Below, piece after piece: positions 42,351-63,720 of a stretch of DNA of 64,000 bases. Made by a program: the position numbers and the translations under genes. A model generated the notes under the pieces. The model ran no database searches. It was not told the origin of the DNA and worked only from the letters and a program-made list of their open reading frames with translations. How positions within the stretch are numbered: position 1 is the stretch's first letter; the number at the start of each line of letters is the position of its first letter. Origin of the DNA: Botryllus schlosseri (Eukaryota); NCBI GenBank assembly GCA_051294905.1, contig CM119373.1:2854001-2918000 (forward strand). The letters are read 5' to 3'.

Positions 42351-45300
42351 TAGGCGAAAAAAATATAACAATTTTTGATGTACCAATACTTGTACATTGT
42401 GTGATGACGGATCCGCATTTTATATGATATAGCAGAGATTCATGACTTACTTTATCTCTAATGTATTGAAGCAAAAGGTTCCTCATTTGAGGGGGCATGT
42501 GCGCCAAACATATCCAGCAGTGGATGAAAACATATCTATGCTATGGCCCGATAAATGACATTACCAAGCCAACAGTTTCAACTCCTCCGCGGCGGAGTAT
42601 GTCGTGTCACAGGTCACTATATAAGTCGACTAATGGCCCGAAATAGAACAGAGAATGCGGCGAATGAAATATTTCAATCATGAAATCAGAGTCAGTCGGG
42701 TGGTGTGCGCAGTCGTAGATATTCACGGTAAGAAATAATGTGTAGTAGGCTACTGTACCTTTCACGATGTGTATCTCGTTCATCATTCGCAGAAATCTTC
42801 AACGATCGTGTCCACTTCCTGCACAAGTTTCGCACCACCCTTTGCTCAAAGCACTCAGACGACACTCGGACGATTCCGAAGTAAGTGATATTCATATGCT
42901 CACATATGCCACCAATAATATTTACTGACCAAGTTATAATGTTTAATCTTGGTAAGGGGTTCTCAACCTTTTTGTAGACATGCCCCCCTTTATGATAGTG
43001 AAAAATTTCGCGCCTCATTTATCGTCATATCACAAAATCTAACCGGGATGCTAGCAACCTCAACATATTGTTTGATGGCATGGAAGGTTATGACTGTTGA
43101 TGAGTGAATTATAAATTATATGAAATTCGGTCTATATATAGAGATACACGCGTAGCGCGAAATTTTATATCAGTTGGCCGCTTCTTCGCACCCCCTGCTG
43201 ATGCTTTCACCCCCCCCCCCCCCGTTCTTTCGCCGTTCTTTCATAGAGAAGCATTTATCAACACACATAGTCCCTTTCTTTTCCATCTGATTTTTTAACT
43301 TATGAGCCCTATACGTGACAACGAATCTAACAAGCGAGGCCGGCGTGTAGCCATAGCCTTATAATATAATATAATGACTTTGGTGTAACCCAGTGATTCA
43401 CAAGCGCGGCCACCAGCTAGCCTTCTTGCGTCCCCCAAAAATATATAAAGAAATTGATTTATGACGAAAAATAAAATTTATATTTATAAAATACTCTTGC
43501 TTGGCTTGGAGTCTGGAGCTTTTAATTAGGATTGTAGGAAAGTTGTAAAGCTAACGTTACATCACTGCTGTGTCAATGCAATGTGCTCTAACCTTCCTGT
43601 TGAACGAGCAGTAGCTATAGATATAGGTATTGATAACTAATCTACGGATAGATGTGCAACACGTGACTCACGGTTGAATATGCCGAGATGGTGACTGCTT
43701 AGCCGGCAAAAAGCAGCATACCGTCAGGGTTGTAAATTTTAATGACTCGAGTCATGACTCGACTCTAGTCACGATTTTCTGATGAATCGAGACTTGACTC
43801 GAGTCATTTTCTCAAAATACGTAAATGACTCGAACCAAGTCATATGACCCGAAACTCAGACGGTCAAGACCGACATTTCATTGTAATTTCGATGAATAGT
43901 AATGTAACTACCACATTGGCATTTCGTCTATTGGTACTGGTACTTGAAAATGAGACCAGAAACTGCTATAAGTGAGGCAAATTAGTCTATCATAAATGCG
44001 AACCATTCGATATCGCTAAACAGTTTTATTAAAAGTGGGTTTAACAATACTTTAACAGGATACCGACCAGTCAATACAATGAGTCGCACTCGAGTCATAA
44101 TACCATGACTCGGACTCGATCGACTCGACGAATTGAAATCTGGCGAATACAATAAAACTAGTTTGGAATAGCCACCAAAGGTCGATTGTTCCGAACAATG
44201 GGAGCGCAGCAACACAATGACCTAAACAATGGCCAATAGCGTCAAAGCGATTGATCGGAACAACGCCAATTTTCATATTTTGGGTCCGTTTCATTGCCCT
44301 GGTATTCGTGCGGCCCCGACCATAGTCTGAAATTCTAAATTTGACCCTGACACCGAAAAAGGTTGGGAACCACTGGTGTAACCACATTAGCTTGTCAGTT
44401 GTTTCTTGTACCGTACTATATGTACTATACTGAAATTCGTACTAGGGTCAACCATTTCCGTATGACCCACCCCTGTCTCGCGAACGAGGTTGAATCAGGT
44501 CAAATCACCACGAAAATAAAATATCAGTAACATTCAGTTCCACGTGTACATTGGCTGCAGCGATTTGGAAGCTAATCAATTTTGACTTGACTTGGCAATT
44601 AAATTAGGGTAATGTTACATATCAAAATATAAAATTACAAGCTACGCACAGTTAGTGGCTGCGACCTGTAGACCCTAATTTGTTGTAAAATTTACAGAGA
44701 TTTCTTTGATGAGCTTCTTAAAGGTACAGAACTTCAGTATGGTATATTCACAGAATAGAATAGAATAGAATAGTATATTCATATTGAAATGAACTCGAAT
44801 ATTTTCGACTGACACTCGTCGCAGGGGTAATCGTCAGCAACTAGTAGAGAATAAGAAAGAACATTGTATATCAACAATCGTATCATAAAATATGACGTCA
44901 CCAGCATGAAACTTCGAATTACAGAGCGTTCAGTGCGCTATTCCTAGGTGGTACACGAACTCCTTCTGTTGACAGAGTTTCTTTGTAAATCTACCAGATT
45001 TTTTACAGTGCACAGGGCTTGGGTTTTAAGGTAAAATTTGGGAATCATTTTGCTGGTCCGACCCGCAAGCGATCTGAAGGTTTGGATCCGGTCCTCACTC
45101 AGGTTGAATTCGACACCCCTGTCTCATACCCTATCGCCCGGATCTTTACACGCATAAACCATTTGATGTGTGTCAGTGGCAAGACAGACTCAAAAGGGAC
45201 ACATCGTCAACGGAACTGCGTAAAATGTGTTTGATGAAAAATTAGAAATGTAATTTCACGGCAGTTATTTGTTAGGTTTACTTTTAAATGAGTCACCATC

Positions 45301-45720
45301 TCATTGATGTTTTTTACAGTTCCTATTCTAACCCAAAATCGGGTCAATGTATCCATATAATTCGCATGTTTTCCAATCAATTCTTGTGTAACGGTGGATT
45401 ACTTCACCAACTTATTATCTGGGTGCAGCAGCATGAGTTAGGAAAAGTGGGCGAAATTTGAGTATTTGAGATCATGCGTCATCAATCCCGGGTACCGGCT
45501 TGGGGCCAAGGATTTGATTGAGCACGGGTTTTTATTGGTACGTGAATATTCTTTAGAAACGGCCTAGATTTCCAGATATGTTCAGAGAATGTAGCGCCTG
45601 GACTGAAGTGCTTAATGAACAAAAGTTTTGCTGTTCTCTGCTCGTGTGCGGAAGAGCATTTCGTATTTTTCAGTCACACTTCGCCGTTAGTGCCCTATCT
45701 ATGAATCAACTATATCAGTG

Positions 45721-45987
45721 GCGAGATAGCGCAGTGGTATAATCCGCGGCTGCAACACCAATGGGTGCGGGTTCGAGTCCGACCGAGGTCGACTTCCGAA
45801 TTCCGATACCTAAGTGTTGGAGGTTTACCTAGGCTCCTCCTCGCCACATCATCCGCGTCAGCGGTGTCTTACAAAAGCCTAGAGGTGGGCCGTGCTATAA
45901 GTCGGCAGTTACGGAAAATAAAAAGAATATCGGCCTGGTGTAAATGACCATAGTAGTCGACAAACACCATGAATACCACAAACCAAC
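45721..45987 (+). mobile_element. tRNA-derived SINE with 14-bp TSD
   Basis: A-box tagcgcagtgg, B-box ggttcgagtcc, (aacc)n tail; perfect TSD caactatatcagtg; related 3' end at about 63265-63372. Confidence 0.9.
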
Positions 45988-48659
45988 CAACTATATCAGT
46001 GCTTTGCAACCTGAGTGACGGTTCGCACTTGGCGAATGAAAAAAATTGCAGCGCGAATGACGAAGGTGGTGCGAATGAAAATCCGGATGACTGCGAATGA
46101 AAATCGTGAATAATTGTTAGTTTTTCTGACGTGGAATAATTCCAATGAACCTGATAGTAATTTCAAGGGCAGTGTAAGTGTGCGACGCAATTGTAAAATC
46201 TTGTTTAACTTACGACTAATCGTAGCTCTCAAAAGCCGTAGTGAATTAATATTTTGCACTATAATTATAGCGTAACCCAAAAACCTGGTTTGTAATCTGG
46301 TGTAGTTGCAGACATACAGTATGTCAGTTCGTCTGAGTATGCGACATGCGACAGGCTGAAAAAATGACTTTCTGCTTTTTTCGCTAAACAATCATCATAT
46401 TTTCGAAATAACTGTTCGATTGGCGCGAGGCGCGAGGATAGTAGTAAATACCATCATTACAGAATCACATTTGCAAGTTACTGTAACGCAAGGGTTATTG
46501 AAGTATGGACAGCAAAGCAGAGCTTTGAGAGTCGGAGCAAGGAGCCTGAGTCACGGAGCCGAGTATTTTCAACGCAGCCGGGGCTCTAAATAAAATTCTG
46601 ATGGAGCCGGAGCCGGAGCTGGAGCCGGTTGTTGGAAAGGTAGCTCCGTTCCAATGTATTTTATTAGCTGCTATGCTAATACTTTTGGCTGAATTCACAA
46701 AAATTTTCAGTAATCGTTCAAAAAATTAAAAATCATCGCCTCGTGGCGCCCCTTTTTGAACTTAACATGTTCAAATTGTTCATATAGAACGCGCTAAACC
46801 CGGGTATACGAGATATGCCGTGTAATACTGTATTCTGGGACGTGGTTATTCGTCATACCCGCAATTTCGTCATCAGCACGACACTGATGGTCAATGGAGC
46901 GGTTCCAAAAATATGAGCAAATGTGAGAAGAGCAAATTAATTAGTGAGTAATTAGCCAGTACTTTTCATTAAATTATGCATTCTTGTCATCCATTGGGGT
47001 TGCGGTATAGTATGATCAGGAATAACTAACAAACAACAAACACCGGTACGTTCAAGTAAAATAAGTAATTAAGGTGTTACTACCTGTTGTGAAAAACAAG
47101 TTAGTGGTAAGCGATGGGAAAAAGTTTGAGAAACACTGAATTCGACGAAGCGATGTCAGATGATGAACGTGACCTTGCTGCACTTGCACCGCACGCCGTC
47201 TACTCTCTGAATTAGACGAGCAAATGCCCGTTCTTTGGTGATAGCTTTTTAATCATGCCGCGAAATTCAACAGTGTGTTATTGTGTGTGCCTGCGAATTG
47301 GAATTGTATCCTGCGCATGATAGTGTATTGCTGTAAGGATATGCGAACGTAAATAGAGAAACGCATCCCGAAACTCCGTTTAGTCTGCGAACAATTTTCG
47401 CGATGCGGGCTAGTCAATTCGATGCCCCAACCCCAATGTCCCAACCCCATGGTGTTGTATATAATAGAGAGGAATTACTGATTGAATGCGCGCATTCCCG
47501 TATATGTAATCATCTGTTTTGTGCATTTATTCTTGTATGCTTGAAACAGTATTCCTGAATTGTCACGCAATGAACGTGTATAGTTTAATTTGTTAATGAC
47601 ACGGTGTACTGCACACCAGATTATCAGTAGAACTAGCTCTGCAAATAAATCGGTTCTTTTGAAGGGAAACTTTCTATATTCCAGTTAACTTGATCGACAC
47701 GGGACGAACTGGTAACGATCGCATCAATATCGAATTTCAACCCATTGGGTATTTGGTAGAAAGCGAATTTCTGGTCGCTACAAGCGCTCATGTTGCGCTT
47801 GCTGCAATTACGCTTGAACAATCCCACATTTTCAAGATTACAGTCAACTATATGGCTTGATATGAGCAAGTGCAACGCCAACGCCAGTATTGAAACGTCG
47901 CGTTAGTGTTTTGATGTGGTACGCAGCAATGCCTTGGAGTGAGTTCTCATGCGACTATGACGTTTCGGTCCATTCGTCAGTTTACGGAGCCGGAGCGTTA
48001 TTATATAAAGTTGCGTGCTATAGACTCTGTGTATAGATTCAGTATATAATAGGTTTAGGAGGATTTGTTCTCTTTTTTTACTTTTTTGAAAGTGTTCTCG
48101 GAGGACGCCTAAATTACCTATTTTTTTTAGAATTTTGGTTAAACGTAAGTGGAAATTGGACCGACATATACGAAATCAACGGCCAAATAATCGTCAGAGG
48201 GGTTTACCCAGACTTGTGATGAAATTCAGAATCTACTCCGTTCTACCTACGGCTTGAGATTCTTATTACTTACACTTGACAAACACCAGTACAACACACA
48301 CAGCAGAGTATATTACAGCGGACCTGTTCATACAGCGAGCGACGTATCGTACTACCACGAGGTAAGCCAGAATAAAACCAATTATACCCGAGTATCAAAG
48401 CATTAACTTGAACGTACACGAGAAACCAGAACACTTTCAATATGAGTCGTTCTCACTCATGCAGGGAGACTAGTGGTTAGCTATCAAAGTTCCAGAATAT
48501 TCCAAACACTAGTACAGTATACAACGAATACACAACATGTACAATATATACAACAGTTTAACAATGTCTCATGCAACATGAAAATCATCATTTTCAACAA
48601 CTTGAGCCAGAAAATGACCTTTTTTTAGTCAACCGACCATGAAGTGGGTAAAATGATTG

Positions 48660-49152
48660 AGGATTTTAGTATATATTTAGTATAAAGATAACGAAAAAGT
48701 AACGATAAAATTGTAAATAGCATGTAAGTATAGGTCTATAGTGAAAGAAAAACTGGATATATTATGTGCAACGGGAAAGCGACGGGTAAGAACGTGTGGT
48801 ATTAATTGAAGCAGTCTATAAATGTAGCCGCTAGTAGCCTGTGGTTTGCATAGAACACACAAATAATATCTACTCGAGCAGTCAAAATGAATTATGATGT
48901 ACCATTTTTCAGGATTTTAGTATATATTAGTACATATTTAGTATAACGATAACGAAAAAGTAACGACAAAATTGCAAATAGCATTTAGGTATAGGCCTAT
49001 AGTGAAAGAAAAACTGGATATATCATGTGTAACGGGTAACGGGTAAGAACGTGTGGTATTAATGGAAGCAGTCTATCAATGTAGCCGCTAAGTAGCCTGT
49101 AGTTTGCATAGAACAAACAAAGAATATCTACTCGAGCAGTCAAAATGAATTA
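48660..49152. repeat. Diverged ~250-bp tandem duplication
   Basis: aggattttagtatata...ctactcgagcagtcaaaatgaatta occurs at 48660-48894 and 48911-49152. Confidence 0.9.
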
Positions 49153-49451
49153 GAAGACCGAATTTCGACCATACTAGAGGTGAGAAAATAACGGCCTGGC
49201 CATATTGGATTCGTACGACCGGCCACGAGAAAATCGTTTTCTCGTGGATTTTCATATTGTGCCCTGACCGCGAGGTGGCGTTATGAAGCCCTATTCCTTT
49301 CTCCTCTTTTCGAAACCTTTGAAAAATCGATCACCGCGAGAAGGCGCTATGAAATTTGAGTCAATACAGTCATACGTCGGCGTGACGTCACACTCATACG
49401 AAAGGGATGATCCTTTTGAAGTGTGACGTCACAGATCCACAAAAGTTAAGT

Positions 49452-51515
49452 TCACGATCTTTTCCGGAACTTCATCTCCGAGAATCGCAGGAGGTTGGAG
49501 GAATCACCCCACCAAATTCCCTTGGCGCCTTCTTTGTTGAAGTTTCCGTTCAGATTGCTGACGGCGCAGTTGCGATACCACCAGCCTGCTTCGAATTTAG
49601 AAGCGCAACCATCGTGATCCGCGTCTTTCGTCGAGAATTGCTGATTGTCGTGAAATGAGAGGGCATCGTGGGTTGCATTCCCGGAGTATCCGGATACGTG
49701 CAGTCTGTACTTGTCGGAGTCCGGTCCGATGTGGAAGGATCTGAAAATGAGAACCGCCGAGTGAATGTCAAATGATTCCAAAATGTTAAAATCCTTGCCT
49801 TGTTTTTCGCTCGAATAGATTGTATGCCAGCCTGCATACGTAATATCATAAGCCTATAAGCATTATGTTACGGATCACTGGGGTTCTATCCTAGCAATAC
49901 TTTTATTCGCCAACCATGAAATTGGCAAAAATACCGTGATTTACCGGTTGTATACAGGTATTATTACTAAAACAGTGGCCCCAACGACTATATAAGTAGG
50001 CATATCTCTATGCTCACGTTGAGTTAGTCGCAATCTGGCGTTATAGCCCTGCGTGTGCGTTGTGAGAAATACAAGATTGATGAAATGCACCGAAATGATA
50101 ATGCCAACGACTCATATTCACCTGTATTTAGCATCCCAATAAACCTCTTTTTTCGTGATCATTTTGATTTTCATCTCCATATCCCCTGTCTTGGTCAATT
50201 GATGCAATGCTTCCAGGCCTGGAAGAAAGTAGATTACCAGATCATCATCATCATTGGTTTATTAGCAATTTTATCAGTTCAATACACCACAAAAAATGCG
50301 ATACAATGAATAGACAGGAAGATGTCGAAGCGACTTGGATTTGTCAATGGAATCGGACACCCACCTTGGCCTAGGCGTAGTAAAGAGGAGGCATGCACAC
50401 TGAATGAAAGTAAAGAATACAGTATAGAAAAAGAAAGCGACAAGAAATAGGGCGGCATGTCATGGGAAGCGAGATCGATAGGTCAGTCGTGGTCCGGTAA
50501 TCTTGAGGATGGACTGTATTTATTTAGTAGTAATTGCTTGTATTTCGACTTGAATGTGGACATGCTCGTCGACTGTCGGATGGCCGGCGGGATACTGTTC
50601 CACACATCAGATGATTACAAACTAACATATGTGAACCAGAAGCTCTTGTTGTGCGCGCAGTGACAAGATGGTGAAACAAATACTCAAGTAGTGCTCACTC
50701 TAAACTCGCCCACACTGCCAATTTACTTTACCATAGATCTGTTAGATCACGACCAATGGATATGGCGCCTCTTCGCCCCCCATGTGTGTCTGGGCGCACT
50801 TCATGAGATAATAGAAAAGTTGTATATGAATAGGTCAGTCGTGGTCCGGTAATCTTGAGGATGGACTGTATTTATTTAGTAGTAATTGCTTGTATTTCGA
50901 CTTGAATGTGGACATGCTCGTCGACTGTCGGATGGCCGGCGGGATACTGTTCCACACATCAGATGATTACAAACTAACATATGTGAACCAGAAGCTCTTG
51001 TTGTGCGCGCAGTGACAAGATGGTGAAACAAATACTCAAGTAGTGCTCACTCTAAACTCGCCCACACTGCCAATTTACTTTACCATAGATCTGTTAGATC
51101 ACGACCAATGGATATGGCGCCTCTTCGCCCCCCATGTGTGTCTGGGCGCACTTCATGAGATAATAGAAAAGTTGTATATGAAAAGTCGTACCCAACCAAT
51201 GATCTCCTTGCAAATTGCCGAATCCTTTCACGTAATCATCCCAACCTCTGTAGAAATCAACGTCTCCGTTCATTCTTCGCTGGAAAACCTTTCATGAAAA
51301 TGGAAATAAATCAATTTTTTTCTGCAACAATCGCGCAGTGAACTCACGGTCCAGTTTCCTCCATCGTCAGTTACGTCACAGAATACATTCGTGATTCCGA
51401 CTTCCGGTATGTCTAATTTGAACACACCCCCAGAATCATTACGTGCTAATGCTGATTCCAATTTGGCACCATCACAACTTCTCATTAGAGCTAGAAATAA
51501 TAGAATTCGTTTCAT
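49452..51515 (-). CDS. Fibrinogen-related domain (FReD; ficolin/tachylectin-5/MFAP4-like) protein; exons 51348-51515 (or 51348-51490), 51192-51288, 50122-50218, 49452-49740
   Basis: GT-AG introns join in frame (phases 0, 1, 2) to give 216 aa: ...MRSC...[54 protein letters not shown]...AKYR|SFHIG...[10 protein letters not shown]...[12 protein letters not shown]...[14 protein letters not shown]...SEMKFRKRS*. Confidence 0.93.
50240..51181 (-). mobile_element. CR1/L2-type LINE 3' fragment in FReD intron 2, with a 352-bp tandem duplication
   Basis: Reverse frame [27 protein letters not shown] and a (tga)n tail; 50478-50829 is repeated at 50830-51181. Confidence 0.75.
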
Positions 51516-51876
51516 AATCGTCAATCGACGAATGACGTCAATCATTCCAGCCTTGAAATGTCAGTTTGGCGGCAGTGAACAGCGTGATACTTGTCAAGTT
51601 ATTACTGCTCTGAGCGTAATGCGTACTACCGATCCGTTGATATTTTAATGCTAAACCGCGGAAGAGTGTCGGTGCCCCTCACCGAATCTTGACGTGTTGT
51701 GGTTATGGCGTTGACATCATTTGTTAGTGCATTCATTAATGTATGCATATTAACGAAACTTGGGATATGCTCAACCCATCTATTTTCTATGTCTGCAATA
51801 TCTGTGACTGAATTTACAATCCTGGATGTTCGTTACACCGGTTGGCATTTCAACTGTTCAGCCAAATACTGTATAC

Positions 51877-52849
51877 CAGTGTTGGGATGATTCGAGTCAT
51901 GACTTGACTCGAGTCAGACACGAGTAACCTTTTTCGTATGACTTGACTTGACTCGAGTCACTTTGCTAACATGACTTGACTAGGCTTGACTCGGCGTATC
52001 AGAAATGTGGATTGACTCGTGACTCGGAGCAAAATTCACGAGTCAATTTCAAGTCATCAAGTAATCGGTGTCGATAAAGATCCCTGTATCTTGCATATGG
52101 TCGGACTGTTCGCTAAATGCTGGCGTAACCCGTGAGAGCGACCAATCTTTCAGTGGTCGTGCGCTTTGCTGAACCTCCATTGTTCTCTCACAAATAAATT
52201 GACCGCAAACGAAGTGATCGAAACTTACAGATTACGTTGTCGTAAACTAGTGCAGGAAAGTAGTTTAATAGCAAAATGTCTATTTCTGTTCTCTGTTCTT
52301 TCCTTAATCAAACCTCTTATTTTATTGAAATTGAATTCAATTATAGTTGATAAAGCCTCAACTATTATCGTAGGCTTGAATAGTATCACATCAATTAGTA
52401 AATAGGTAATGTATTGCATCTTATCAATTCGTTTCGCTATTCTCTATTTTGACTGGTAACTATAAACTGAGGCTGTATAATTACTTACGTAGTTTAGCAG
52501 TTCTACATATATGTGAGCGATACAGGGCCTTTTTGCTTGTATATTTGACTCTATATTCGCTCATTGGTTTAGAATCAATGACCACTCAATCTGTATTTCA
52601 GACAGCTAGCAAAATGCAATGACGTAATCATACCTCATACTTCAAAAAGGCAACATGACTTGAATTGTGACTTGACTCGTGACTTGTCTCGACTCGACTT
52701 GACTCGAGTCACCTCCAAAAATCGAGTGACTTGACTTGACTCGAGTCACTTTCGAAAATCGATTGACTTGACTTGACTTGACTCGAGTCAAATGTGCAAT
52801 GACTCGAGATGACTCGTGACTCGAAGGTAGTGACTTGATCCCAACACTG
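51877..52849. mobile_element. hAT-type MITE (GACTT/GACTCGAGTC repeats)
   Basis: TIR cagtgttgggat...atcccaacactg; perfect TSD ctgtatac. Confidence 0.92.
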
Positions 52850-54071
52850 CTGTATACTGTAATAATTTCTGATTAAAATTCGTGATACTAATTTCAATTA
52901 ATCTACGAATTATTTTGGTGCTATATTTAGCCTTTATTTTACGATGGAGAGTTGGAGACTGAAGCCAGATTGCTCAAATATCAGTATAAGTCTGATGGTG
53001 AATTGACAAGAATGCAGTGTTGGCGAAGGCAGCAGTTCATAAAATATCGTCCTCGGTAAGCATTAGTTCAATCTGCAGCGACAATGTCCATGATCCGCCG
53101 ATTATCACTGCTAAAGATATCTGGCTGACAATACATCGCGCGAATATGAGGCGAGTGGAATTACCCGGGTATCAGAGACTACGCCAAACTTAAACTTGGG
53201 GGAATCATTCTTAATTCGGCTCTGAATGAAGTTAGCGTGCCACACGATGAGTGGGCTGCTGACGGTAGCTCCGCGTTGCTTGATCCTATTCTTTCCTCCA
53301 AGGCACAGACTTGTTTGATAAACCAGATTTTGTCTGTATTGCAATTCAAGAGCAGGAATATGAATTTATGAATTTTATATGACTGTCTGTCTGTATTTGA
53401 CCGGTATTTGGTATGTATGCTCGTGGTGGATTTTGGCATAACTACACGATAATGAAAATATATTGTCAAATTGTGATGTCTTAGACACAACATAATTAAG
53501 GGTCAGTATTAGCTCAGTATTTCTGCCAGAAAGCAATAATGATTTAGGCTAATAGCGGTTGCAGGCTGCAGTAGCGAGAAGGACGGACGGCAACAGAAGG
53601 ATTAATGAGTCTGCAGCTCAAGTACGAAAATTGTATCTTTTGCAGCCTCATTTTGGCATTGAATGCGCATGATACGCCGGGCGAACGTTTCCCATTTTAT
53701 TGACTGGGTGTTGGACTGTTGGTGTCTATGTCCCAAACATATAATTTACATTAAATACGAATAATTCCATAGGTGGATAAATACGCGTTCGATTTAGGGA
53801 TCCGACCGGCCAAGTACTTCATTTTTTCAGATCCGGCTCGCTGACCGCAGAAGTTGCCCGCCCCTGGGTTGGTGCAAGATTCGGTATCATTGTGTGAATG
53901 GTACGACGCAAATATGACATTAAAAATCGAAATATAATGAGGATTAGGCCTATTGCCATTGTTGACACTTGGAAGTTTCAGCACAGATTAAACTCATTAT
54001 GAGTTCAAGAAATATCATTTCTGTCAGGCGGCTTCGCGTCTCCCCTCGAGAAGTAGCAACGATGTACTTAC

Positions 54072-54191
54072 CAGAGCAGTTTTTACCATAATATCCATCG
54101 GTGCAATTGCACGAATAGTACGGATGAGTGACATTACTAAGACATGTTCCGTTATGTTGACAGACATTCGGATGGTGGTCGCAGTAATTTT
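54072..54191 (-). CDS. Locus B EGF-like exon B5
   Basis: 120 nt, AG/GTAAGT, phase 1-1; NYCDHHPNVCQHNGTCLSNVTHPYYSCNCTDGYYGKNCS. Confidence 0.88.
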
Positions 54192-54307
54192 CTAGATGGA
54201 AATTATGCGATGTGTCAAACCTACTGAATTTATACACAGCCAACTGTTGCGGCAGTGAGCGAATCGTATTCTGGCCATAGCACAGGAATTAGAAACGATA
54301 TACTTAC

Positions 54308-54331
54308 CACTGCGGTTTTATCCATAATATC
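54308..54331 (-). pseudogene. Locus B EGF exon remnant B4 (3' end only)
   Basis: TAT TAT GGA TAA AAC CGC AGT G|GTAAGT followed by the family intron. Confidence 0.7.
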
Positions 54332-54848
54332 TGTTTACGATTGTCAAATCATTGTTTTCCCTTATTTTCGTTGCGCAATTTAATCGTTGTAGCAATGTAA
54401 TTATTAGTCATATTCTTTATCGCGTCGTTTCACGTGGGGTATATAAAGCTTCTATCGTAACATATTAAGTTGGATATTTTTGATGACGCTTAATTAAATA
54501 TTCCATCTCAGATGACCATTTCAATGATATGAGTCCTAAAGTTTTAGCTAGCATGAAGCGAAATAAGCTCATGCTTTTCCAATTTGAAAAATAAAATAAA
54601 AATTAGGTTGTTACTCATTTTACAAATCCAGAGGCTTCGCGGACCCCCTGAAATTGCTTCACGGACCACCAGCGGTCCCGGGACCCCCGGTTGAGAACCA
54701 CTGCATTAGGGTGATGTTTACAGTAATTTTCGGTACGTAAATGAAATGATACGTCAAAACTACTGAATTTAGAAACATCCAGGTGTTATGGCAGCAATCG
54801 AGTCTTTTCCTGGGCATAGCTCAAAAATTATAGAAGTGATATACTCAC

Positions 54849-54968
54849 GGCTGCAGTTTTTTCCATAATATCCGTCGGTGCAATTACACGTATGGTACGG
54901 ATGAGTGTTATTATTCCGACACGTTCCGTTATGTAGACAGGTATTCGGGTGGTGTTCACTGTAATTTT
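54849..54968 (-). CDS. Locus B EGF-like exon B3 (1st Cys replaced by Ser)
   Basis: 120 nt, AG/GTGAGT; NYSEHHPNTCLHNGTCRNNNTHPYHTCNCTDGYYGKNCS. Confidence 0.8.
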
Positions 54969-55561
54969 CTATATAGAATCCAAGCGATGCGTCAAACCTA
55001 CTGAATTTAGCCACGAGCAAGCGTATTGACAGTGAGTGAATGCTTTCGCGGGCGCGGCTCAGTAATTAGAATCATCGCTGGGAAAATGATTCGGGTACTG
55101 AAAGCTGGAAAAGGATTATTAATTCTAATAGTCGAGTCAAGTAGTGCGGGATGACTTTTTCCATGTACTGGTATATATACCCTGTTACCACTAAAAGTAA
55201 TTTCATCAACGAGAATTATAGTTTCCATACTATTTCCCACTTTGGAAGCCTTGAAACCGCGATTGCTCGTATCGCAGGGTAAGATCGAAACATGAAGTGC
55301 CAAGCTGCGCAGAGTGCGCACCCTAAGAGGAAATGTCATATCTATGAAGTCGCGATCAACCCACAGCAACATCCCAAAGTGCAATGAAATGGGGATGATT
55401 GTAGAAATCTCATTGTATTCTTTGTGGTCACAAAAAGTTACATATTTAAACTTTCCACATCGTTCATACTGTTTTGACGTGCTAATGAGGGATACTGAAA
55501 TGCTAGACTCGACTCGAGGCAAATTACTCGAATCAGATTCGTCCCTATTCGTTTCCGCAAG

Positions 55562-55664
55562 ATCCATCGGTGTGATTACACGTATGGTACGGTTAAGTGT
55601 TATTATTCAGACATGTTCCGTTATGCTGAGAAGCATTCATTCGTGAGGTGTTCACAATATTTCT
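55562..55664 (-). pseudogene. Locus B dead EGF exon B2
   Basis: 4-bp duplication (GAAT), TAA stop, Cys losses; 3' end replaced by unrelated ~490-bp sequence. Confidence 0.82.
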
Positions 55665-55786
55665 CTGCATGGAAAAGAAGCGATAACTGGGTCGAACCTA
55701 CTCACGTTATAGACACAACCAAGTACCATGGTAATGAGCTAGTCTTCTTCTGCACATAGCTCAATAATTAGAAGCGATATACTTAC

Positions 55787-55906
55787 GGCTGCAGTTTCTT
55801 CCATAATATCCGTCGGTGCAATTGCACGTATAGAGCGGTTTCGTGTCATTATTCAGACATATTCCGTTATGCTGACAGGGATTCGGGTGATTATTGCAAT
55901 AGTCAT
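55787..55906 (-). CDS. Locus B EGF-like exon B1 (paralog of E1)
   Basis: 120 nt, AG/GTAAGT; DYCNNHPNPCQHNGICLNNDTKPLYTCNCTDGYYGRNCS. Confidence 0.9.
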
Positions 55907-55992
55907 CTGTATTGACAAGCAGAGACATCTTATTAAAGTTCTTGGTATTAGTTAGATGCAGCGAATTTGTTGGGTCCCGGTTACATCATTTC

Positions 55993-56870
55993 TAGGGCAA
56001 TTTTTTTTTACCTAAAAAACGGAAGATTTTGACCTAAAAAATCTAGATTTTGACCTTTTTTGACCTAAAAAAACTGAAATTTGACCAAATTTTGACCTCA
56101 CGTATGCAAATTAGGTGTTTTCGCATATAATGTTAAAATTGTACTACTTATCTTCATTTCTGGTTGGAACTATCTGTCCTTACAAAGTAGATTGGCCTGA
56201 AAAAACGTTTTTGGCTCAGAAACTGACAGATTTTTACAAGAAAAACTAGTATTTTAGCGAAATCTGGCCCTATGAAGAATTCCAGTAGTTACATTACGTA
56301 TTCTGGTGGAAATAATTAAAATTTGTTGTTGTACAACGAAAGATCCTTTCCTACATTTTCGGGTAGAGAGTGTCTGTCCTTACTACGTAGCTTGCCAAGA
56401 ACGGAGAAAGAACGTTCAACAGCAGCATTTGTTGGCTGACAACACTCAAGTTGTGTGCACACTGCTGGTGACAAACCGTGTTGCTTCATTCTGACAATGT
56501 TGTCTATATCACAATTGGTCAGCTTGCGCTTCTTGATATAAGAACCATGCAATGTCCAAGCAGTCTTGCTTCAGCTAGGATATTGCGGTACGTTGACCAT
56601 AAAACCATGTCGCTATTTGTTTCATTTGACCATTTATGATTCACAATGAGCAGACGATGGTCCGTTTACAACGGTAGGCCTATAAAGTAGGCTACAAGCT
56701 GTAAAATATCAAATGATAAGTTCACCGACAGCGCAAAATCTACGATACAAATGAAATGCTGAGGTCAAAAAATGTTTGACTTTGTAAACAATTTTGACAA
56801 ATTTTGACCTAACGCTACAATTTTGACCTAATTTTGACTTTTTTTGACATGTCAAAAAAAAATTGCCCTA
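55993..56870 (-). mobile_element. Internally deleted hAT element retaining the transposase C-terminus
   Basis: TIR tagggcaattttttt...aaaaaaattgcccta; perfect TSD atcatttc; QPTNAAVERSFSVLGKL motif; empty site at about 20154 in locus A. Confidence 0.92.
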
Positions 56871-58510
56871 ATCATTTCTTATCGACAATGATAAGCGTAA
56901 CAAGAACTATCCCCGGTAATCTTACGGATACAGATCACTGGTTCACTTGCATGTAAACTCGAATAGTACTGTTACTTGTTATTTTTCAAAATTGTGCCTC
57001 CAACGATTCGGGACGTGCCCATTTTTAATGCTGTACCTCTTGCGGGATAGGTTTATGATTTAGCTTAGTCTGATGCTCTGCTCTTTTGAGCCACGGCAAG
57101 ACACTACAATATGTATATGTTATCTATTCATATGAATATTTCTGACAAGTGTATTCAATAACAAAAGAATAATTCACGCCTCGTGCGATGTTCCTGTTGC
57201 TTTTTGCAATTGGTAATGATAGAGCGGTATCGAAAGCATATACTTATCGCGCGTTTACTCTTGGCCCAAAATATTGATAGCGATGACAATAAGTCACGAT
57301 TTCATAGTAACGTGGCTAAATCTATTGACGTCACAATGTCACTGTCAAATTTTAGGGGATATTTCACTAGCGACGCCCTTTTATATCACTCATACGTAAT
57401 ACGCACTCCCCTGCCTCAATCTACCAGTCCCAATTTGCATGAGCCCGCATTTACTGGATACTCTGTTTCATTGCACATTAGATATGGGCATATGGCTCTG
57501 GTAAAACCTGTTCACTGTTATGTTAGTTGCCATCTACTGTGTGATTGAATTCCCTCACGTTGCCGGTAAACGTGGATTTGAATTCTTTCACGAGCGTGTT
57601 TACTTGTTTACGTTACTTCGCAGCGATGTCACGCGTTCTATATTTCAAATGCAGACAATAACATTTACCGACGTTCGATCATGATCAGATTCATCCAAAA
57701 AGCCTGAGGAATACTAAAGATAGTTTAATTTTATTTAACATAGTCTTAACATAAATATATGGTGTCATTGTAAATATCTTCTTATCATTTCTATATTTAT
57801 GAATACTTATGAACGTACCTTTTCTAATATAATTAGGCTAGGCAAAATCGAGTACATCAGTGATTCGATTCAGAATCACGTATTATGCGTCGAGTCGAGT
57901 ATTCGAGTGTCACACACTATGACGCCATAACAGAATGTAATATGTCAAAGTTCAAATATGTAGCTTGTATGCCACAGCAAAGAATATAATGCCTGTTATC
58001 CACCACATTAAAGATGCTTTGATATTTTTTCGACCATATACCGATTTCATTACACTTCGTGACAAGGTTATGGGATGATTATGACTTCGAAAATGTGTTA
58101 TTTCACGTAAGCTTTGTAGCTTTGTACTATGTTTCGTATGCTTTAATGCAGCCAATTATTGTTTTAAGCCATCTAAATTGGAAACTAGCATCAAAACTAT
58201 AATTCTCGTTGATAAATTAACTTTCAGTAGCGAGGAGCTTGTAATTTCAGTACTCGAAAATATCGTATTTTACTACTCGACTCGAATCATTAAAATTAAT
58301 TCTCGATTCAGATTCGAGTAGGCCTACTCGAATCATGGTGCCCAGCCCTAAGTATAATAAGACAAATTATACTGAATGACCCACTGTTCATCAACTTCAA
58401 AATTTGCCAATAGCTCTGTGGCCCACAATCAAGTGATTGCCTCTCGGTTAGTTTAAGCCTTGGTTGTTTTAAGCCTTGGTTGGTTGGTTGGTTGGTTGGT
58501 TGGTTGGTTG

Positions 58511-59447
58511 CAGTGTTGGGATCAAGTCACTACCTTCGAGTCACGAGTCATTTTGAGTCGTTGCACATTTTGACTCGAGTCAAGTCAAGTCAATCGATTT
58601 TCGAAGGTGACTCGAGTCAAGTCAAGTCACTCGAATTTTGGAGGTGATTCAAGTCAAGTCGAGTCAAGTCAAGTCAAGTCACGAGTCCAGTCACAATTCA
58701 AGTCAAGTTTCCTTTTTGGAGGCATGCTTACGTCATTGCATTTTGCTAGCTGACTGAAATACAGATTGAGGGGTTGTTGATTCTGGACCTATGAACGAAT
58801 ATAGAGTTAAATATAAACGCAAGAAGGGGCTTTATTACTCACATATACGTAGAAATGCTTAACTACGTACGTATAATTGCATAGCCTCTGATTATAGTTA
58901 CCAGCCAAATAGAGTATAGAGAAACGAGTTGATAAGATGCAATACATTACCCATTTACAAATTGATATGATACAATTCCAGCCTGCGCCGATGGTTGAGG
59001 GCTATATAAATTATATTGGAATTCAATTTCAATAAAACAGGAGGTTTGCTTAAGTTAAGAACAGAGAACAGAAATATACATTTTGCTATTAAATTACTTT
59101 ACTATACACTTTACGACAACGTAGCTGTAAGCTTCGATTACTTCGTCTGCGATCAATTTATATCTGAGCGAACAATGGAAGCTCAGTAAAACGCACGATC
59201 ATTGAATGATTGGTCGCTCTCATGTGTTACACCATCCTTTCGCGTACAATCCGGACGTATGCAAGATACAATGATTTATATCCACATCGATTGTTTGATG
59301 ACTCGAAATTGACTCGTGAATTTTGCTCCGAGTCCGCGTCCACATTTCTAATACGCCGAGTCAAGTCAAGTCAAGTCATTTTAGCAAAGCGACTCGAGTC
59401 AAGTCAAGTCATACGAAAAAGTCATGACTCGAGTCATTCCAACACTG
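58511..59447. mobile_element. Second copy of the 51877-52849 MITE, opposite orientation, inserted in a (GGTT)n microsatellite
   Basis: TIR cagtgttgg...ccaacactg; reverse-complement similarity throughout; flanked by gttggttg. Confidence 0.9.
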
Positions 59448-59522
59448 GTTGGTTGGTTGGTTGGTTGGTTGGCTGGTTGGTCCTGGTTGGCTGTATCCGT
59501 ACTATTAGTATATTATTCTTAC

Positions 59523-59621
59523 CTGAGAAGTCATTGGTGTAATATATGGTGGTTTCAATTTTACAACCGCCCTCAACACAGTTCGAAAATAATTTTTGGA
59601 GTTTCGCCATGTTACTCGAAC
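59523..59621 (-). CDS. Candidate phase 1-1 internal exon upstream of locus B/FReD
   Basis: tttactttcgcAG acceptor, AG|GTAAGA donor, 99 nt open: SSNMAKLQKLFSNCVEGGCKIETTIYYTNDFS. Confidence 0.5.
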
Positions 59622-61259
59622 CTGCGAAAGTAAATCATTTCATCATGTGGAATCATGCGATATCGCAATGAGTCTCATGAAGTGTCACGTTCGCATGTTT
59701 GGTATTATAGTAAAACGTTTATAGTGCGATTATCGTCATTGTTATTGTTATAGCACAGCGAGGTGGAAAAGTAATGGACATTTATATAAAGAAAGAAGAT
59801 TATATTAATTTATCTGAAGAGATCTAATAGGCTATCAATTATAACGACTTATAAAACATGTTATTGTAATATTTTTTCATGTTAGAGCATATATAAGCCT
59901 ACATCTGATGCGAGGTACATTAACTCATTCTCATTTCGTACAAATTTGATGACGAGGATAGAATCAACCATTTGGAACTCAGCGAACATGTCGTACTGAA
60001 ATATAAAAGAATGAAATTAGGTAATATTTAAGCCTTCAGTCTACATGATACATACATATACAACATCACGTTACACGCATACGAAATATAGAGGCATATA
60101 ACAGTACGGGCCTTATTATTAAAACCATCCACTATTCAGCCTGCTATTGAATTGTATTCATCCCCCCTAATTTAGCGGGGGGTCAATTTCGAACTGGTCT
60201 GATGTCGATTTCCATTGATTATTGGCTATGATTCGAAATGAAATTGAAAAAAAGTGTTATCGAAATCAGTGATTCTTAATTTTGCTTTGATTGCTATCTT
60301 ACATCAACCTCTTGATTCAAGTTTTAAATAAAACTTAATTTTTATTAATCTAGTAAGAGATGCTCTCAAAACGACACTCACTTGAGAATTAGGTCTCTAA
60401 ATTACAGTATCTATCTGCTGATCAGTTCATATCTTCATCGTGGTCGCAGATTTCAGTGGCACGATTGAAATATCATAACTCGCTTACATCGAACTTACAT
60501 CAGTAGAAAAGTTTTTCAATCATGCTGAAACGGAGACCATGAAAATGCTGACCCGAAATCGAAGACAATTGATGGGTCACATAAGGTCAATATGAAGGGA
60601 TTCTGAAATTGTGGTGAGCTTGAACCGAAAAAAATTCTCCACGAAAAATCAAAACTTCAGGAATTGATTATATCCAAGCTATATAATAGTTGACGGGCCA
60701 ATATATGGCATTATCCTAATATTTTCATGAGTCATGACATACCGTCATTGTCAGTGCGCCTGCCTTTTCGGGTGCGCAATGGTGATCCCCTGAAAACAAG
60801 TGAGTAATCTTTAAATGAGTATCTTAGGGAATTACTCTATTCAACTCGGTTTATCTTTACGGTACTGCTAGATGTAGACACTATACTATAGGTTGGAGAT
60901 AATTGACCCCACTATTCGAGTTTCGAGTGTTTGTAGTTTTGGAATAATCCATGCCTGTAAACTCAACCTAAAAATGACGCGAACGCGGTTCATAGTTATC
61001 ATATATTTAGACAAGTGGTTCTTTACCTTTAATAACTTGGCGAACACTGCGATCCTTCGGCGAACCCCATACATTCGTCTATTCACAAAACTCTATCGCA
61101 TTACACATCTAATATATTACCATTTACTAGAGCACAAAATTGACTGCGCATCCACAGCAGTGTTAATAGTACAAAGCAATTCAAACGTGGTTGTCACGCA
61201 AATCAACGTGACTTCCGCAGTATGAGTCTGGTGTGTGCCTTCACCTCTAGCGTACTGCT

Positions 61260-63720
61260 AGGGCTCGTATGAACCCCCGTTGAGAATCACGGATTTAGAA
61301 GTATGATGAGCATTGGTTGAACTGGATTGTTTCCTGATTCAATCTGTCAGAATTGCCCAATAAATATAGCCGCTTTATCATGAACACTGGGAGTCAACAC
61401 AACATTGTGTCTCTATGGATGTTAGATTGACACGCCTCTCATGGTTGTTTCGGCATCCTTTAATCTGTTGATTGCGTCACATTATGTCTTGTTTATCATA
61501 TTGTTCGAGTGAATAAAAATGATAACATCCCTGATTTCATATTTTTTTCGGAGAGTATAGGGCCTACTGACTAAATGATTTTGTAACAATACTGTACCAA
61601 GCGAGTTCGTCCCGAAAAACAAGAGAATCAACAATATCCAGTGGGCGAACATCACGGATGTCATTAATTTCCTGTCGAAAAATAAACAATGAATTGATGA
61701 TATATTATAGGTTCATTATAAATATCATTCGCGTAATACAAACGTAGTGTATAGATTCCTTGTGTTTGTAATTAAGTCTGGGCAGAATAGAGTACCTCCG
61801 TGATTTGATTGTAGCTTCGATTTTTATGTCGTCATAACAGTATGGAAGATGGGGAAAATTCAAATACATACCTTTCATGCGACCAAAAATAATGCAATGC
61901 CAGTTCTACATCACATTAAAAAATATTTGGTATCTTTTCGACCTATTTCATTGGATTTTGTTAAAATGCTGTGGGTTGCTCACGACTCGGCAGACCACTG
62001 CATAGCTTTGTACGATGTTTCGTGTGCTGAGGTTTCAAGGCTGCCGCAGCAGCAAATGGTATGGAAATATAGTTTAAGGAGATGGATTGAATCTTAGCTG
62101 CAATTATCGTATAATTTCAGTACTCGATGAAAGCATCTTCCACTGCTCGACTCAAATCATTAGAACTAATGCTCGATTTAGATCCGAGTGGAGTACTCGA
62201 ATCATTGTGTCCGGCCTTATTCAAAATCTTTGAGTGGCCAATTCATAAATTTGCATTATGCAATATTGTAGCATACTAAAAGTGTATGTTATTTTACATC
62301 AGTTCTTTGCCGAACTCCACTAAAGATTTGCCCAAACGTAACCTTTCCCAATAAGGAATCGTATGGCGAAAGTCGTATGTGAAGTACTGGTATTTTTACA
62401 AGTCAATAAATAGTCAAAGTCGTGTATTTTGTTCTTGCCAACTGTAATTTCTGGTCACTAAAATCGCTTTTCGACTATACAATTACATCCTGGTTCGGAT
62501 ACAGAGCATCGGATACAGAGTAATGTTGACGTCAGCAATTTTACTATTAATAGTTTACCCACAGTTGAAATGTTATGGCTTAATGCCAACAATGGAGCAT
62601 TATCGTGACATGAGTTGTCTGGTAGCTGGTCTGACTAACTCAGGGGTTCCGAAAGGGCGGGCCATGGCCCACTGGTTGGTCACATGATTAATTTGAGATG
62701 GGCCACAAAGCTATTTCAAAAATTGTAGATTTAGTAAAAATTTAGTTATATTTCTTATGTTCATATATTCAAACATATACTCATTATTCATATTATCGAA
62801 TTATACGTTGGCTACAAAGCTTTTCATCCGACTATGATGAGATATAGTAGCACGTATGGAGTCACAATGTACAAGTCGAAAATGGTAGGGGAAACGGCGG
62901 CTTTTATCCCCCGGCTATGGCAACTTACGGCTAACAGCAACGTAAATAATTTCTGTCATATAATATCTGGAACTTAATGCTGAAGTGACCAAGTATTCCG
63001 ACAATGTCATATGTCGTATGCCCTTGAAAAGGGCGTGCATTAAACTCGAACTGAAGTGCATTTGATGTAGATGTACGGTACTTCTGTAGGTCGTATTATT
63101 ATACGATCTTCCGGGCCGTAACTGTCGCACCCCAAAACCCGAAGGGGCCTGAAATTTCGTTGGTTGTTTGTTGCATGAGATGTATTCATCTTGAAAATAT
63201 TCGTCGCCATTCGCGCGACTTCATGTCTAGGTCTACACTTTAATACGATTATTACGACAAAAATGTGCTATAAGTCGGAGTTATGGGTAAAAATGAAGAA
63301 TATCGGCCTGGTGTAAATGACCATAGTAGTCGATAAACACCATGGATGCCACAAAACAAATAAACAAACAAAGTAGAATGACCGCTGTAAATTCCTTCTC
63401 AAATTTCAAAGAAAACGTTTCGTTGAGTCGCCGGATACCTTTAGTGGTCAACTGTAAGGCGTCACTTTCGAAATTGCAAAGTGCATCGATGCCACTAACG
63501 CAATAGTATATGACAACACCACCCTTTTATACGGGTGCCAACATACACCCAGAGCAAACGAAATCAGAATCTACCTTATACCGCTGTATAAATCGACCAC
63601 AACACTTTACACATTTTGCATGCACGTAGGAACGAAGGAAGGTATGCGCGTAGGCCCTTTCGGTGTGAAGTGACCATCTTTTCGATAAGAGTGTACTGAT
63701 TGCTAAAATCTCTTTCGCCC
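61260..63720 (+). repeat. Duplicated block X, copy 3
   Basis: Aligns to 27553-29700, with an insertion at about 62640-63372. Confidence 0.88.

Follow-up and report, generated by a model that had tools for sequence, protein, structure and literature searches.

A FReD gene beside a damaged EGF-exon array in Botryllus schlosseri, with related cassettes elsewhere in the genome

A four-exon FReD gene and array B

The window, a stretch of 64,000 nucleotides of Botryllus schlosseri DNA, holds a single fibrinogen domain (FReD), here called FReD B. Its gene comprises four exons on the minus strand (51515-49452) with GT-AG introns throughout, and its CDS of 651 nt encodes a protein of 216 aa. An array of EGF exons, array B, lies upstream. 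In the order of transcription, the features are:

55787-55906, minus strand: EGF exon B1, intact, six cysteines (Pfam EGF 29.0 bits)
about 55545-55664, minus strand: remnant of EGF exon B2, with in-frame stops and without a donor
54848-54972, minus strand: EGF exon B3, open, five cysteines, Ser replacing the first (Pfam EGF 18.2 bits)
54308-54730, minus strand: EGF exon B4, broken, 5' part at about 54730-54703 and 3' part at about 54331-54308
54072-54191, minus strand: EGF exon B5, intact, six cysteines, donor G|GTAAGT (Pfam EGF 22.9 bits)
51554-51874, no strand assigned: transposable-element repeat whose near end lies 39 nt upstream from the FReD ATG, running on into a nested repeat to about 52858
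51491-51492, minus strand: AG, candidate phase-1 acceptor, preceded by the tract ttctattatttct; use of this AG would start the exon at 51490
51348-51515, minus strand: FReD exon 1, with ATG at 51515, leader and first FReD cysteine (C14), to ...GGNWT; donor GTGAGT
51192-51288, minus strand: FReD exon 2 (Pfam Fibrinogen_C 39.1 bits)
50122-50218, minus strand: FReD exon 3, 100% identical to exon 3 of cassette D (see below)
49452-49740, minus strand: FReD exon 4, carrying the stop codon (Pfam Fibrinogen_C 61.4 bits)

As the initial annotation claimed, a complete FReD lies 2.6 kb downstream of array B on the same strand. The open frame across the four exons contains the cysteines C14...C46 and GCAS...RNC, which we take to be the disulfide pairs of the domain. 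Exons 4 and 2 both exceed the Fibrinogen_C (PF00147) gathering cut-off of 22 bits, and PF00147 is present in all of the best database relatives. Exon 1 is conserved in all six cassettes described below, and the fastest-evolving of the four exons is exon 4. The FReD family is very large in this genome, with at least 150 matches among 411 candidates. The repeat upstream of the gene occurs across contigs at 84-93% identity (at least 40 copies listed among 153 candidates), and the joint 51874->52858 is present in X20 and in X1.

Array B does not consist of five good exons. The exons are of phase 1-1. Only B1 and B5 have six cysteines together with a profile score above the Pfam EGF (PF00008) cut-off of 21.5 bits. 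B3, which is unique at 100% in the assembly, falls short, B2 is dead, and B4 is interrupted by some 370 nt of foreign sequence (54702-54332). A signal-peptide exon for array B was found neither in the window nor within 22 kb upstream.

Paralogous arrays, lectin-like exons and six cassettes

Further features of the window relate array B to a second EGF array, array A:

56871-57729, minus strand: upstream flank of B, paralogous to 20154-21246 of array A
55995-56865, no strand assigned: insertion present in B as compared with A, separating B1 from the shared flank (A/B alignment)
39280-39494, minus strand: W39, paralog of the lectin-like exon after array A; acceptor tttag, phase 1, frame ended by an in-frame TAA (...SQSN*)
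26713-26785, minus strand: predicted signal-peptide-like exon MVAFPLLSIILQATALISTVSRSS, donor GG|GTGAGT, phase 1
13962-20081, minus strand: EGF array A, 11 exon-like units, 7 of them intact
13429-13655, minus strand: the lectin-like exon that follows array A, encoding 75 aa with a likeness to the N-terminal part of a CTLD; donor GTGAGT

The proposed paralogy of A and B holds for the arrays (55540-55992 against 19716-20161, 74% identity) and extends to the upstream flank (77-82%). Within this flank (56871-57729) we found no signal-peptide-like exon. The insertion next to it has high-copy depth in X20, and its 84-aa ORF belongs to no Pfam family. In array A, the unit at 16856-16969 has an in-frame stop, another unit has Gly in place of its last cysteine, and a transposable element is inserted at about 16400-15020. 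The signal-peptide-like exon at 26785-26713 joins A1 in frame. Its only other full copy is located upstream of array C, and the A and C copies are identical.

The suggested join of array A to the exon behind it (13962->13655) is in frame. That exon had been named a C-type lectin exon; its phase 1 stands, but its identity as a C-type lectin is weakly supported. Pfam returned no family, including C-type lectin (PF00059), for this exon or for the ORF at 39280-39513, and only the N-terminal part of the domain is present, from CYW... to ...IWTAS. The C-terminal half of a CTLD, with the long-loop region and the last cysteines, was absent among 88 minus-strand ORFs in 1-13420. A profile of four paralogous lectin-like exons gave 13 matches among PDB sequences, nine of them CTLDs, the best of these being the weak match to CLEC10A (E = 0.015). 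The top match overall was a designed repeat protein and was judged spurious. In an atlas search with the exon after array A, 11% of the members of the nearest clusters carried Lectin_C (score 0.93, 160 shared features). A lectin-like paralog, L024, reached 18.7 bits against the Link domain, under the cut-off of 27. The exon may be called weakly C-type-lectin-like.

The statement that no lectin exon is recognisable after B was wrong, because W39 lies downstream, 10 kb beyond the FReD B stop. The in-frame TAA of W39 precedes the position of the donor in the A exon. No further lectin-like ORF was found in 30000-49452, and genome-wide the lectin-like exon has only five matches, all on contig C3.

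An EGF array together with a FReD was found at six loci in the genome, each with the same layout: the EGF-exon array, a repeat-rich spacer of 1.7-2.7 kb and a four-exon FReD. All six of these FReDs are accompanied by an EGF array. Judged by sequence, this pairing is conserved and repeatedly duplicated, and locus B is not special. Array A is without a FReD segment, and its closest array relative, array D, is followed by one. Cassette D has the same order as B, namely array, FReD, about 10 kb and a lectin-like exon, while no lectin-like exon was found near cassettes C, C14a and C14b. The idea that duplication swapped the head on a shared stalk is too simple, given that B also has a lectin-like exon downstream and D has a FReD. 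What does find support is a modular locus that contains EGF exons of phase 1-1, a FReD and a lectin-like exon whose acceptor is of phase 1. The fairest pair for comparing the same stalk with different heads would be A and C, which share the identical signal-peptide-like exon, rather than A and B. A fusion of EGF exons and FReD somewhere in the family is plausible, with cassette C as the best candidate.

Transcription and start of FReD B

Expression was followed in X23, a bulk RNA-seq data set of which about 6/100 of the run's raw reads were sampled, with depth taken by bins at a likeness threshold of 93%. FReD B is covered: mean depths are 4.3 and 5.4 in the exon 4 bin (49439-50072), and position 51391 in exon 1 has 12 reads, nine of them with the reference base. 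The bin 53877-54510, which holds B5, has depths of 0 and 0, and depth amounts to 0.14/0.12 in the B3 bin and 0.19/0.26 in the B2 bin. Among the fetched regions, exon 4 reaches 84% identity or higher only against locus B itself, and the intron 3 repeat copies, cassette paralogs excepted, are at most 84% identical, so that at the 93% threshold the reads of the exon 4 bin are locus-specific. Nor does the read filter remove sequence of the B3/B5 type, since such sequence is carried by a spliced contig in X4 (record 21, 569 nt), in which an exact B3 (a 121-nt piece) is followed directly by a B5-like exon, B4 being skipped. The last 180 nt of this contig match nowhere on 45001-64000 and hence lie outside FReD B. 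A dip in depth alone is no finding, and the X23 evidence comes from one run.

Whether FReD B is transcribed alone, with array B as a decaying remnant of a cassette, appears to us evenly balanced, and we prefer this reading. Array B would then be degenerating, with two of its five exons destroyed and a third having lost a cysteine, and FReD B would be an active gene transcribed without the B EGF exons. Its transcript most likely begins at its own exon 1 or slightly upstream of it; reads just upstream of the ATG are uninformative at this point, because the repeat begins 39 nt upstream. Translation would start at ATG 51515, which has an A at -3 and is kept in five of the six cassettes, and would give a very short hydrophobic leader right before the first FReD cysteine; the product may be secreted.

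This start has weaknesses of its own. By eye, the leader consists of an n-region MKR, an h-region ILLFLALM of eight residues and RS before Cys14, and it coincides with the conserved splice-acceptor-like tract. The hydrophobic core of eight residues, placed two residues from the first cysteine, weakens the own-start reading. In a stand-alone FReD gene of the same genome, L007, the signal peptide likewise shares an exon with the first cysteine; it has 21 aa and is followed by a 23-aa linker, and in comparison to L007 (MEFLMPLLLFLIAFSTSPTWA) the FReD B leader looks poor as a signal peptide. The presence of stand-alone genes of this kind and the very large size of the FReD family nevertheless speak for an own start. 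The own-start reading is further weakened by cassettes E (TGA at codon 6) and C14a (ATG lost, 10-nt deletion), in which the ATG-led frame is broken and the FReD frames are open through all four exons, while the tract and the AG are kept in six of six cassettes.

The alternative proposed initially is that B1, B3 and B5 are spliced from 54072 to the acceptor at 51491, which would yield a secreted protein with an EGF stalk and a FReD head and turn the apparent signal peptide into a polypyrimidine tract. The join of B5 to 51490 does keep the reading frame. By chance, a single AG would match the phase in 1 case of 3, so the match alone is not significant. Apart from the conservation of the tract against the two broken ATG-led frames, and from the poor leader, this alternative gains from the consensus donor of B5, which needs a partner, and from the phase 1-1 exons, which allow dead ones to be skipped, as B4 is in the X4 contig. 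EGF modules beside a FReD are also a known architecture, in Mytilus, in Physella and in the FReM of Biomphalaria. Against it, X23 has FReD B reads, none for B5 and almost none for B2 and B3, the X4 contig does not run into FReD B, and no signal-peptide exon for array B was found in the window or the 22 kb upstream. The AG itself is unremarkable: under a PWM trained on 38 acceptors of the gene family it scores 3.0 bits, below the lower quartile of the training sites (9.1), and it takes rank 26 among the 266 AGs of 54100-49400. Neither the binned depth of X23 nor the X4 contig places EGF and FReD on one transcript at locus B, and the junction 54072->51490 is unsupported; of the phase-1 acceptor, the in-frame join stands and its use at this locus is unsupported by RNA. 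We consider the spliced protein unlikely. The homology to L007 does not begin until about 10 nt past the AG, as expected of an exon-shuffling junction, which is a further point against the own start; under the preferred reading the AG probably marks the original join of the FReD to an EGF gene in an ancestral fusion.

The depth pattern is not decisive for FReD B being transcribed alone, because the same pattern would result if the transcript started from a distant first exon and skipped every EGF exon. Such an upstream exon, for example one encoding a signal peptide, could be spliced to the AG at 51491, or FReD B could have alternative first exons, one with its own start and one spliced. Both variants share the acceptor evidence just described, skipping phase 1-1 exons would preserve the frame, and both are compatible with X23, where the FReD is covered and the EGF exons are not. 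We found no candidate first exon in 51516-54071 or 55907-64000, the X23 depth is zero in the unique bins 57047-57680 and 59583-60850, and copies of the signal-peptide-like exon are confined to A and C, which makes this possibility rather improbable.

Least probable, and quite doubtful, is that array B pairs with W39 across a 14.6-kb intron downstream of B5, with the FReD as a nested independent gene: W39 is in frame with B5 by a phase-1 tttag acceptor like that of A, the order of array, FReD, about 10 kb and lectin-like exon recurs in cassette D, and W39, like the final 180 nt of the X4 contig, lies outside 45001-64000, but W39 stops after 70 aa, half a domain at most, and the few lectin-like matches on contig C3 leave C, C14a and C14b without such an exon.

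Comparison with known systems

As a gene transcribed alone, FReD B would resemble the stand-alone secreted FReD lectins of the ficolin-like or tachylectin-5-like type. The common ground is a protein of about 200 aa made of a signal peptide and a FReD, which is the most frequent form in the database relatives and is represented in this genome by L007. FReD B differs in its unusually short leader, located on an acceptor-like tract, and in the EGF array that stands alongside in six cassettes.

Proteins with both modules are known from molluscs. The Mytilus 'fibrinogen-like protein A' (P0010) has an EGF-like module seven residues before the first FReD cysteine, and the Physella 'ficolin-1-like' protein (P0042) combines three EGF_CA domains with a FReD. 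In Biomphalaria glabrata, a lophotrochozoan with a large FReD gene family, FReM has an EGF-like region and a C-terminal FBG domain (PMC7588048). There, EGF-like module(s) stand N-terminal of the FReD, as the EGF array stands before the FReD here; in contrast to FReM, a single transcript for both is argued against at locus B by X23. Among 88 database hits for the EGF type found here (YCxHHxNPCQHxGxC...GYYGKNC, one exon per repeat), no close relative has a FReD.

The gastropod VIgL family (FREP, CREP and GREP) joins a common IgSF stalk to fibrinogen, C-type lectin or galectin heads (PMC5433772). In contrast to that family, the stalk here consists of EGF repeats and not of IgSF domains, the lectin-like head is half a CTLD-like domain, and the fusions are predicted only; no Ig-type Pfam family occurred in any ORF scanned. 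The resemblance, by analogy only, would lie in one stalk with alternative heads: array A leads to a lectin-like exon and array C to a FReD, with the signal-peptide-like exon and the flank in common.

FReD B, array B and their transcripts

At locus B the fibrinogen-related domain (FReD B) appears to be expressed alone. The window is eukaryotic sequence of about 40% GC, all genes and exons described from it lie on the minus strand, and FReD B is the sole FReD within its 64 kb. The initial annotation had described a complete FReD downstream of the EGF-exon array B on the same strand, and this holds: the gene is an open four-exon model of 216 aa with Pfam Fibrinogen_C matches above the cut-off of 22 (61.4 bits for exon 4, 39.1 bits for exon 2). 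Exons 1 and 3, each searched alone, gave no Pfam match. The paralogy of arrays A and B was likewise borne out by the exons and by about 1 kb of common upstream flank with 77-82% identity; about 870 nt of inserted sequence lie between B1 and this flank. As an EGF stalk, however, array B is preserved in part: B1 and B5 are intact, whereas B2 is dead, B4 is split and B3 lacks one cysteine.

Features of FReD B and of arrays A and B
51515-49452, minus strand: FReD B gene, four exons of 168/97/97/289 nt, GT-AG introns, 216 aa
55906-55787, minus strand: B1, intact EGF exon
~55664-55545, minus strand: B2, EGF exon with stops and without donor
54972-54848, minus strand: B3, open EGF exon, first Cys changed to Ser
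Between B3 and B5, minus strand: B4, EGF exon interrupted by ~370 nt of foreign sequence
54191-54072, minus strand: B5, intact EGF exon, donor G/GTAAGT
20081-13962, minus strand: array A, 11 exon-like units, 7 intact

Some further observations concern these arrays. The donor of A1, the first EGF exon of array A (19954-19961), is of the GC type (G/GCAAGT), as is that of the first EGF exon of array D; GT is found at every other intact EGF exon. Array A is split between its seventh unit and a partial, decayed exon by some 1.4 kb of inserted sequence (15020-16400) that is bounded by terminal inverted repeats GGGCAGAGGTCTCAAAC.... Within the insertion upstream of B1 there is an 84-aa ORF (56319-56570, minus strand) without Pfam match, in which we see by eye a resemblance to the C-terminus of a hAT transposase. 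A Pfam scan of 317 further ORFs from the window and two loci returned solely a zf-RVT fragment and sub-threshold noise.

Transcription was assessed with raw bulk RNA-seq reads of B. schlosseri (run X23, the one RNA-seq run used, about 6% of it read), in the form of depth by bins, where a dip is not by itself a finding. Other candidate RNA runs, of small share, contained mostly repeats. The bin 49439-50072, which holds FReD exon 4, had a mean depth of 4.3 + 5.4. Since exon 4 has no match of at least 84% identity among the fetched regions other than locus B, and since the intron-3 repeat has, cassette paralogs apart, no copy above 84% identity, this depth is locus-specific. Of the 12 reads over position 51391 in exon 1, 9 carry the reference base. 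Depth was 0.14/0.12 in the bin of B3, 0.19/0.26 in that of B2 and 0 in unique intergenic bins. The 5′ end of the FReD transcript is unreadable from depth, because a repeat of at least 40 copies extends from 39 nt upstream of the FReD ATG onward. A long 5′ UTR, suggested by even X23 depth in 51341-53242, was rejected, as 51554-51874, like the stretches next to it, is repeat sequence of high copy number; a pile of read starts at 53317 was also discarded, being without splice signal and within a repeat of about 200 copies (by depth in the deep DNA run X20). Intron 2 (50500-51170) carries a unit of about 352 nt in two tandem copies. In both, X23 reads pass at 50610 and 50962 into one common foreign sequence GTCCGGCATATTTGATGG... 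(bin depth ~190), which identifies the two units as parts of a repeat with high copy number and high expression.

In a second run, X4, a contig (record 21, 569 nt, on 54076-54969) aligned in three pieces, namely a B3-like exon (7 differences), the exact 121-nt B3, which is unique at 100% in the assembly, and a B5-like exon (6 differences). B4 and all introns are absent, and 180 nt follow that match nowhere on 45001-64000. As the contig joins EGF exons without introns, the EGF arrays are transcribed and spliced, and this transcript does not enter FReD B. Its composition suggests a different array B haplotype in that animal, or a chimeric contig. The splice from B5 to the FReD that had been proposed is thus not supported at locus B, where X23 reads cover FReD B and the bin holding B5 has none (0/0), and where the X4 contig misses the FReD. 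That FReD B is expressed on its own, with array B as a remnant, is in our judgement the most probable reading, at about even odds.

The acceptor tract and the cassette copies

The AG at 51492/51491 is preceded by ttctattatttct, and its join with B5 (54072 to 51490) is in frame, as expected of the phase-1 acceptor that had been proposed; the prior for a phase match by one AG is 1 in 3. With a position weight matrix trained on 38 acceptors of the same gene family, this AG scores 3.0 bits, less than the lower quartile of the training sites (9.1), and takes place 26 among the 266 AGs of a 4.7-kb stretch. Because the matrix is over-fitted to related sites, the low rank is weak evidence against use of the AG.

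The window (C3:2854001-2918000) was compared with 198 kb around matching loci. The EGF exon type has 112 matches in the assembly, clustered at C3 2.80-3.22 Mb and on C14. An EGF array followed by a spacer of 1.7-2.7 kb and a four-exon FReD, here called a cassette, exists in six copies (B, C, D, E, C14a and C14b) with homologous spacers throughout, and arrays A, F, G, Z1 and Z2 are without a FReD. Every array is a mixture of intact and dead EGF exons, and the intact exon nearest upstream of each FReD belongs to the B5 type and has a consensus donor. Tract and AG are kept in all six cassettes and the ATG in five. Cassettes E and C14a are without a usable start of their own, yet have the acceptor-like tract and open four-exon frames.

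Exon 1 of cassettes E and C14a
C3:3059541-3059708: cassette E exon 1, MKRIL followed by a stop (TTA to TGA, codon 6), rest of the FReD frame open
C14:995380-995526: cassette C14a exon 1, ATG removed by a 10-nt deletion, unrelated sequence upstream

The sole in-frame upstream Met of C14a gives no hydrophobic leader, and in cassette D FReD exon 4 is broken. Frame and a kept acceptor speak for a fusion of B5 to the FReD at locus B and the transcripts speak against it; we regard it as unlikely.

The 5′ end was compared with one stand-alone FReD paralog, L007, in which the exon of the first Cys also codes for a convincing signal peptide MEFLMPLLLFLIAFSTSPTWA and for a linker of 23 aa. Homology between L007 and cassette exon 1 does not begin at the AG but about 10 nt beyond it. 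The cassette leader comprises an 8-residue hydrophobic core, two further residues and then the conserved first Cys. The conserved AG, the limit of the L007 homology and the short leader would all fit a cassette that arose by exon shuffling and whose acceptor tract also serves as a minimal leader. Such a dual tract is, at the level of sequence, an attractive hypothesis.

The FReD family itself is wide. A search of the 496-Mb assembly with FReD exon 4 gave at least 150 matches listed of 411 candidates. Among longer database proteins the best identity to exon 4 was 53% and none came from B. schlosseri; no candidate for exon 1 was found among database proteins of near length. In the six cassettes dN is 0.15-0.36 for exon 4 versus 0.04-0.11 for exons 1-3, exon 4 diverging much faster. 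This evidence supports a large, fast-evolving family with a quicker exon 4, in which one subfamily is always accompanied by an EGF array. For five cassette FReDs dN/dS is 0.5-1.0 in every pair, values by which function of E and C14a is neither proven nor excluded. A 5-residue insertion before the CAS cysteine is present in the FReDs of C, E and C14b and absent from FReD B.

First exons and lectin-like exons

The 19 kb upstream of A1 were scanned for hydrophobic exons that begin with ATG and end at a phase-1 donor, and a sole candidate first exon was found.

26785-26713, minus strand: signal-peptide-like exon, MVAFPLLSIILQATALISTVSRSS, donor GG/GTGAGT, phase 1, joins A1 in frame

Apart from this exon the genome contains one full copy, upstream of array C (C3:2941244-2941444) and identical over 201 nt; two partial matches of about 80% identity are at C3 5.44 and 5.55 Mb. 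Since full copies occur only at A and C, these would be the best pair to share a stalk and differ in the head, an idea formulated for A and B that fits A and C better by the shared first exon. No signal-peptide-like exon was found for B, including the flank shared with A and the B5-FReD spacer, and B seems to be a cassette that lacks a start. A feed of acceptor 51491 from another upstream exon, or use of both starts, seems to us quite unlikely.

Lectin-like exons
13655-13429, minus strand: lectin-like exon of A, 75 aa, in-frame join to the last EGF exon
39494-39280, minus strand: lectin-like exon after B, paralog of the exon of A and with the same tttag phase-1 acceptor, in frame with B5, TAA after 70 aa

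The join of the last EGF exon of A to its head (13962 to 13655) is in frame, as had been predicted. The assignment of this head to the C-type lectins is another matter, for which a weak, consistent remote similarity stands beside the lack of a Pfam family and the recovery of half a domain. A protein-atlas search gave, as a lead only, nearest clusters with 11% Lectin_C members (score 0.93, 160 shared features). Against PDB sequences, with E values up to 10 admitted, a profile built from four paralogous exons had 13 matches; C-type lectin domains account for nine of them, matched in their N-terminal part (best CLEC10A, E = 0.015), and the top match, a designed repeat protein, was dismissed as spurious. 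One paralog matched a Link-domain model below the cut-off. The rest of the domain was not found among 88 minus-strand ORFs downstream, and the exon of A therefore probably represents the N-terminal portion of a CTLD-like fold and does not amount to a demonstrated lectin domain.

Array B had been thought to lack a lectin exon, and the paralog at 39494-39280 shows otherwise. A splice from B5 to this distant exon with the FReD nested between them, for which frame and phase are suitable, seems to us very unlikely. The surrounding 35500-42000, about 8 kb when aligned to C3:2948950-2957440 downstream of cassette D, is 92-98% identical to it, a sign that this segment was duplicated very recently, over a distance of about 61 kb. 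An ORF at 39677-40132 (plus strand; zf-RVT, E = 3.3e-6, 28.1 bits) is a retroelement fragment and lies on the opposite strand, immediately before the lectin-like exon.

Arrays A and D have near-equal exon spacing at an offset of about 100 kb. Array D is followed by the FReD and, 10.7 kb further, by a lectin-like exon, and B has the identical order. Because both D and B show this order, A looks like the form without the FReD segment, rather than B having gained it. The view that duplication swapped the head is not upheld, as B keeps a lectin-like exon and the spacing-twin of A has a FReD.

Modular heads and known systems

The initial annotation was largely right in what it observed, with three corrections: the lectin-like exon after B, the weak lectin identity and the decayed array B. 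Its modular idea is partly supported at the level of the family, and its specific B5-to-FReD junction is unsupported. For annotation this means that array B and FReD B should not be one gene model without junction reads and that the last exon of A should not be labelled a C-type lectin domain.

We tentatively propose, while considering it rather doubtful, that the cluster is an EGF-stalk counterpart of the gastropod VIgL lectins with varied heads, in which a FReD acceptor was turned into a start codon and a minimal signal peptide. One signal-peptide exon and phase 1-1 EGF exons would carry heads that vary from cassette to cassette: a CTLD-like exon in A, a FReD in C, and probably a FReD also in E and C14a. 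Read as ILLFL, the pyrimidine tract ATT CTA TTA TTT CTA G would free the FReD head as a stand-alone gene at locus B. The same 25 nucleotides would then close an intron in some copies and encode a leader peptide in others, and the cluster would show a gene fission under way. An acceptor tract read as leader would be a concrete example of how a shuffled domain might become independent.

FReD expansion and EGF-FReD cassettes are kinds already known. FReM proteins, with EGF-like and FBG domains, are described from Biomphalaria in passages of PMC7588048, and database proteins of Mytilus and Physella have EGF modules directly ahead of a FReD. A profile of the cassette-type EGF returned 88 generic EGF proteins from the databases, none of the 88 with a FReD. 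According to passages of PMC5433772, one stalk with several lectin heads is established for the IgSF-based VIgL family (FREP/CREP/GREP). There the stalk is IgSF, whereas in the B. schlosseri cluster it consists of EGF repeats. If the EGF-FReD fusion is true, heads would have been exchanged through segmental duplication and deletion within a single 200-kb cluster, and the principle of one stalk with several heads would extend from snail IgSF stalks to EGF stalks.
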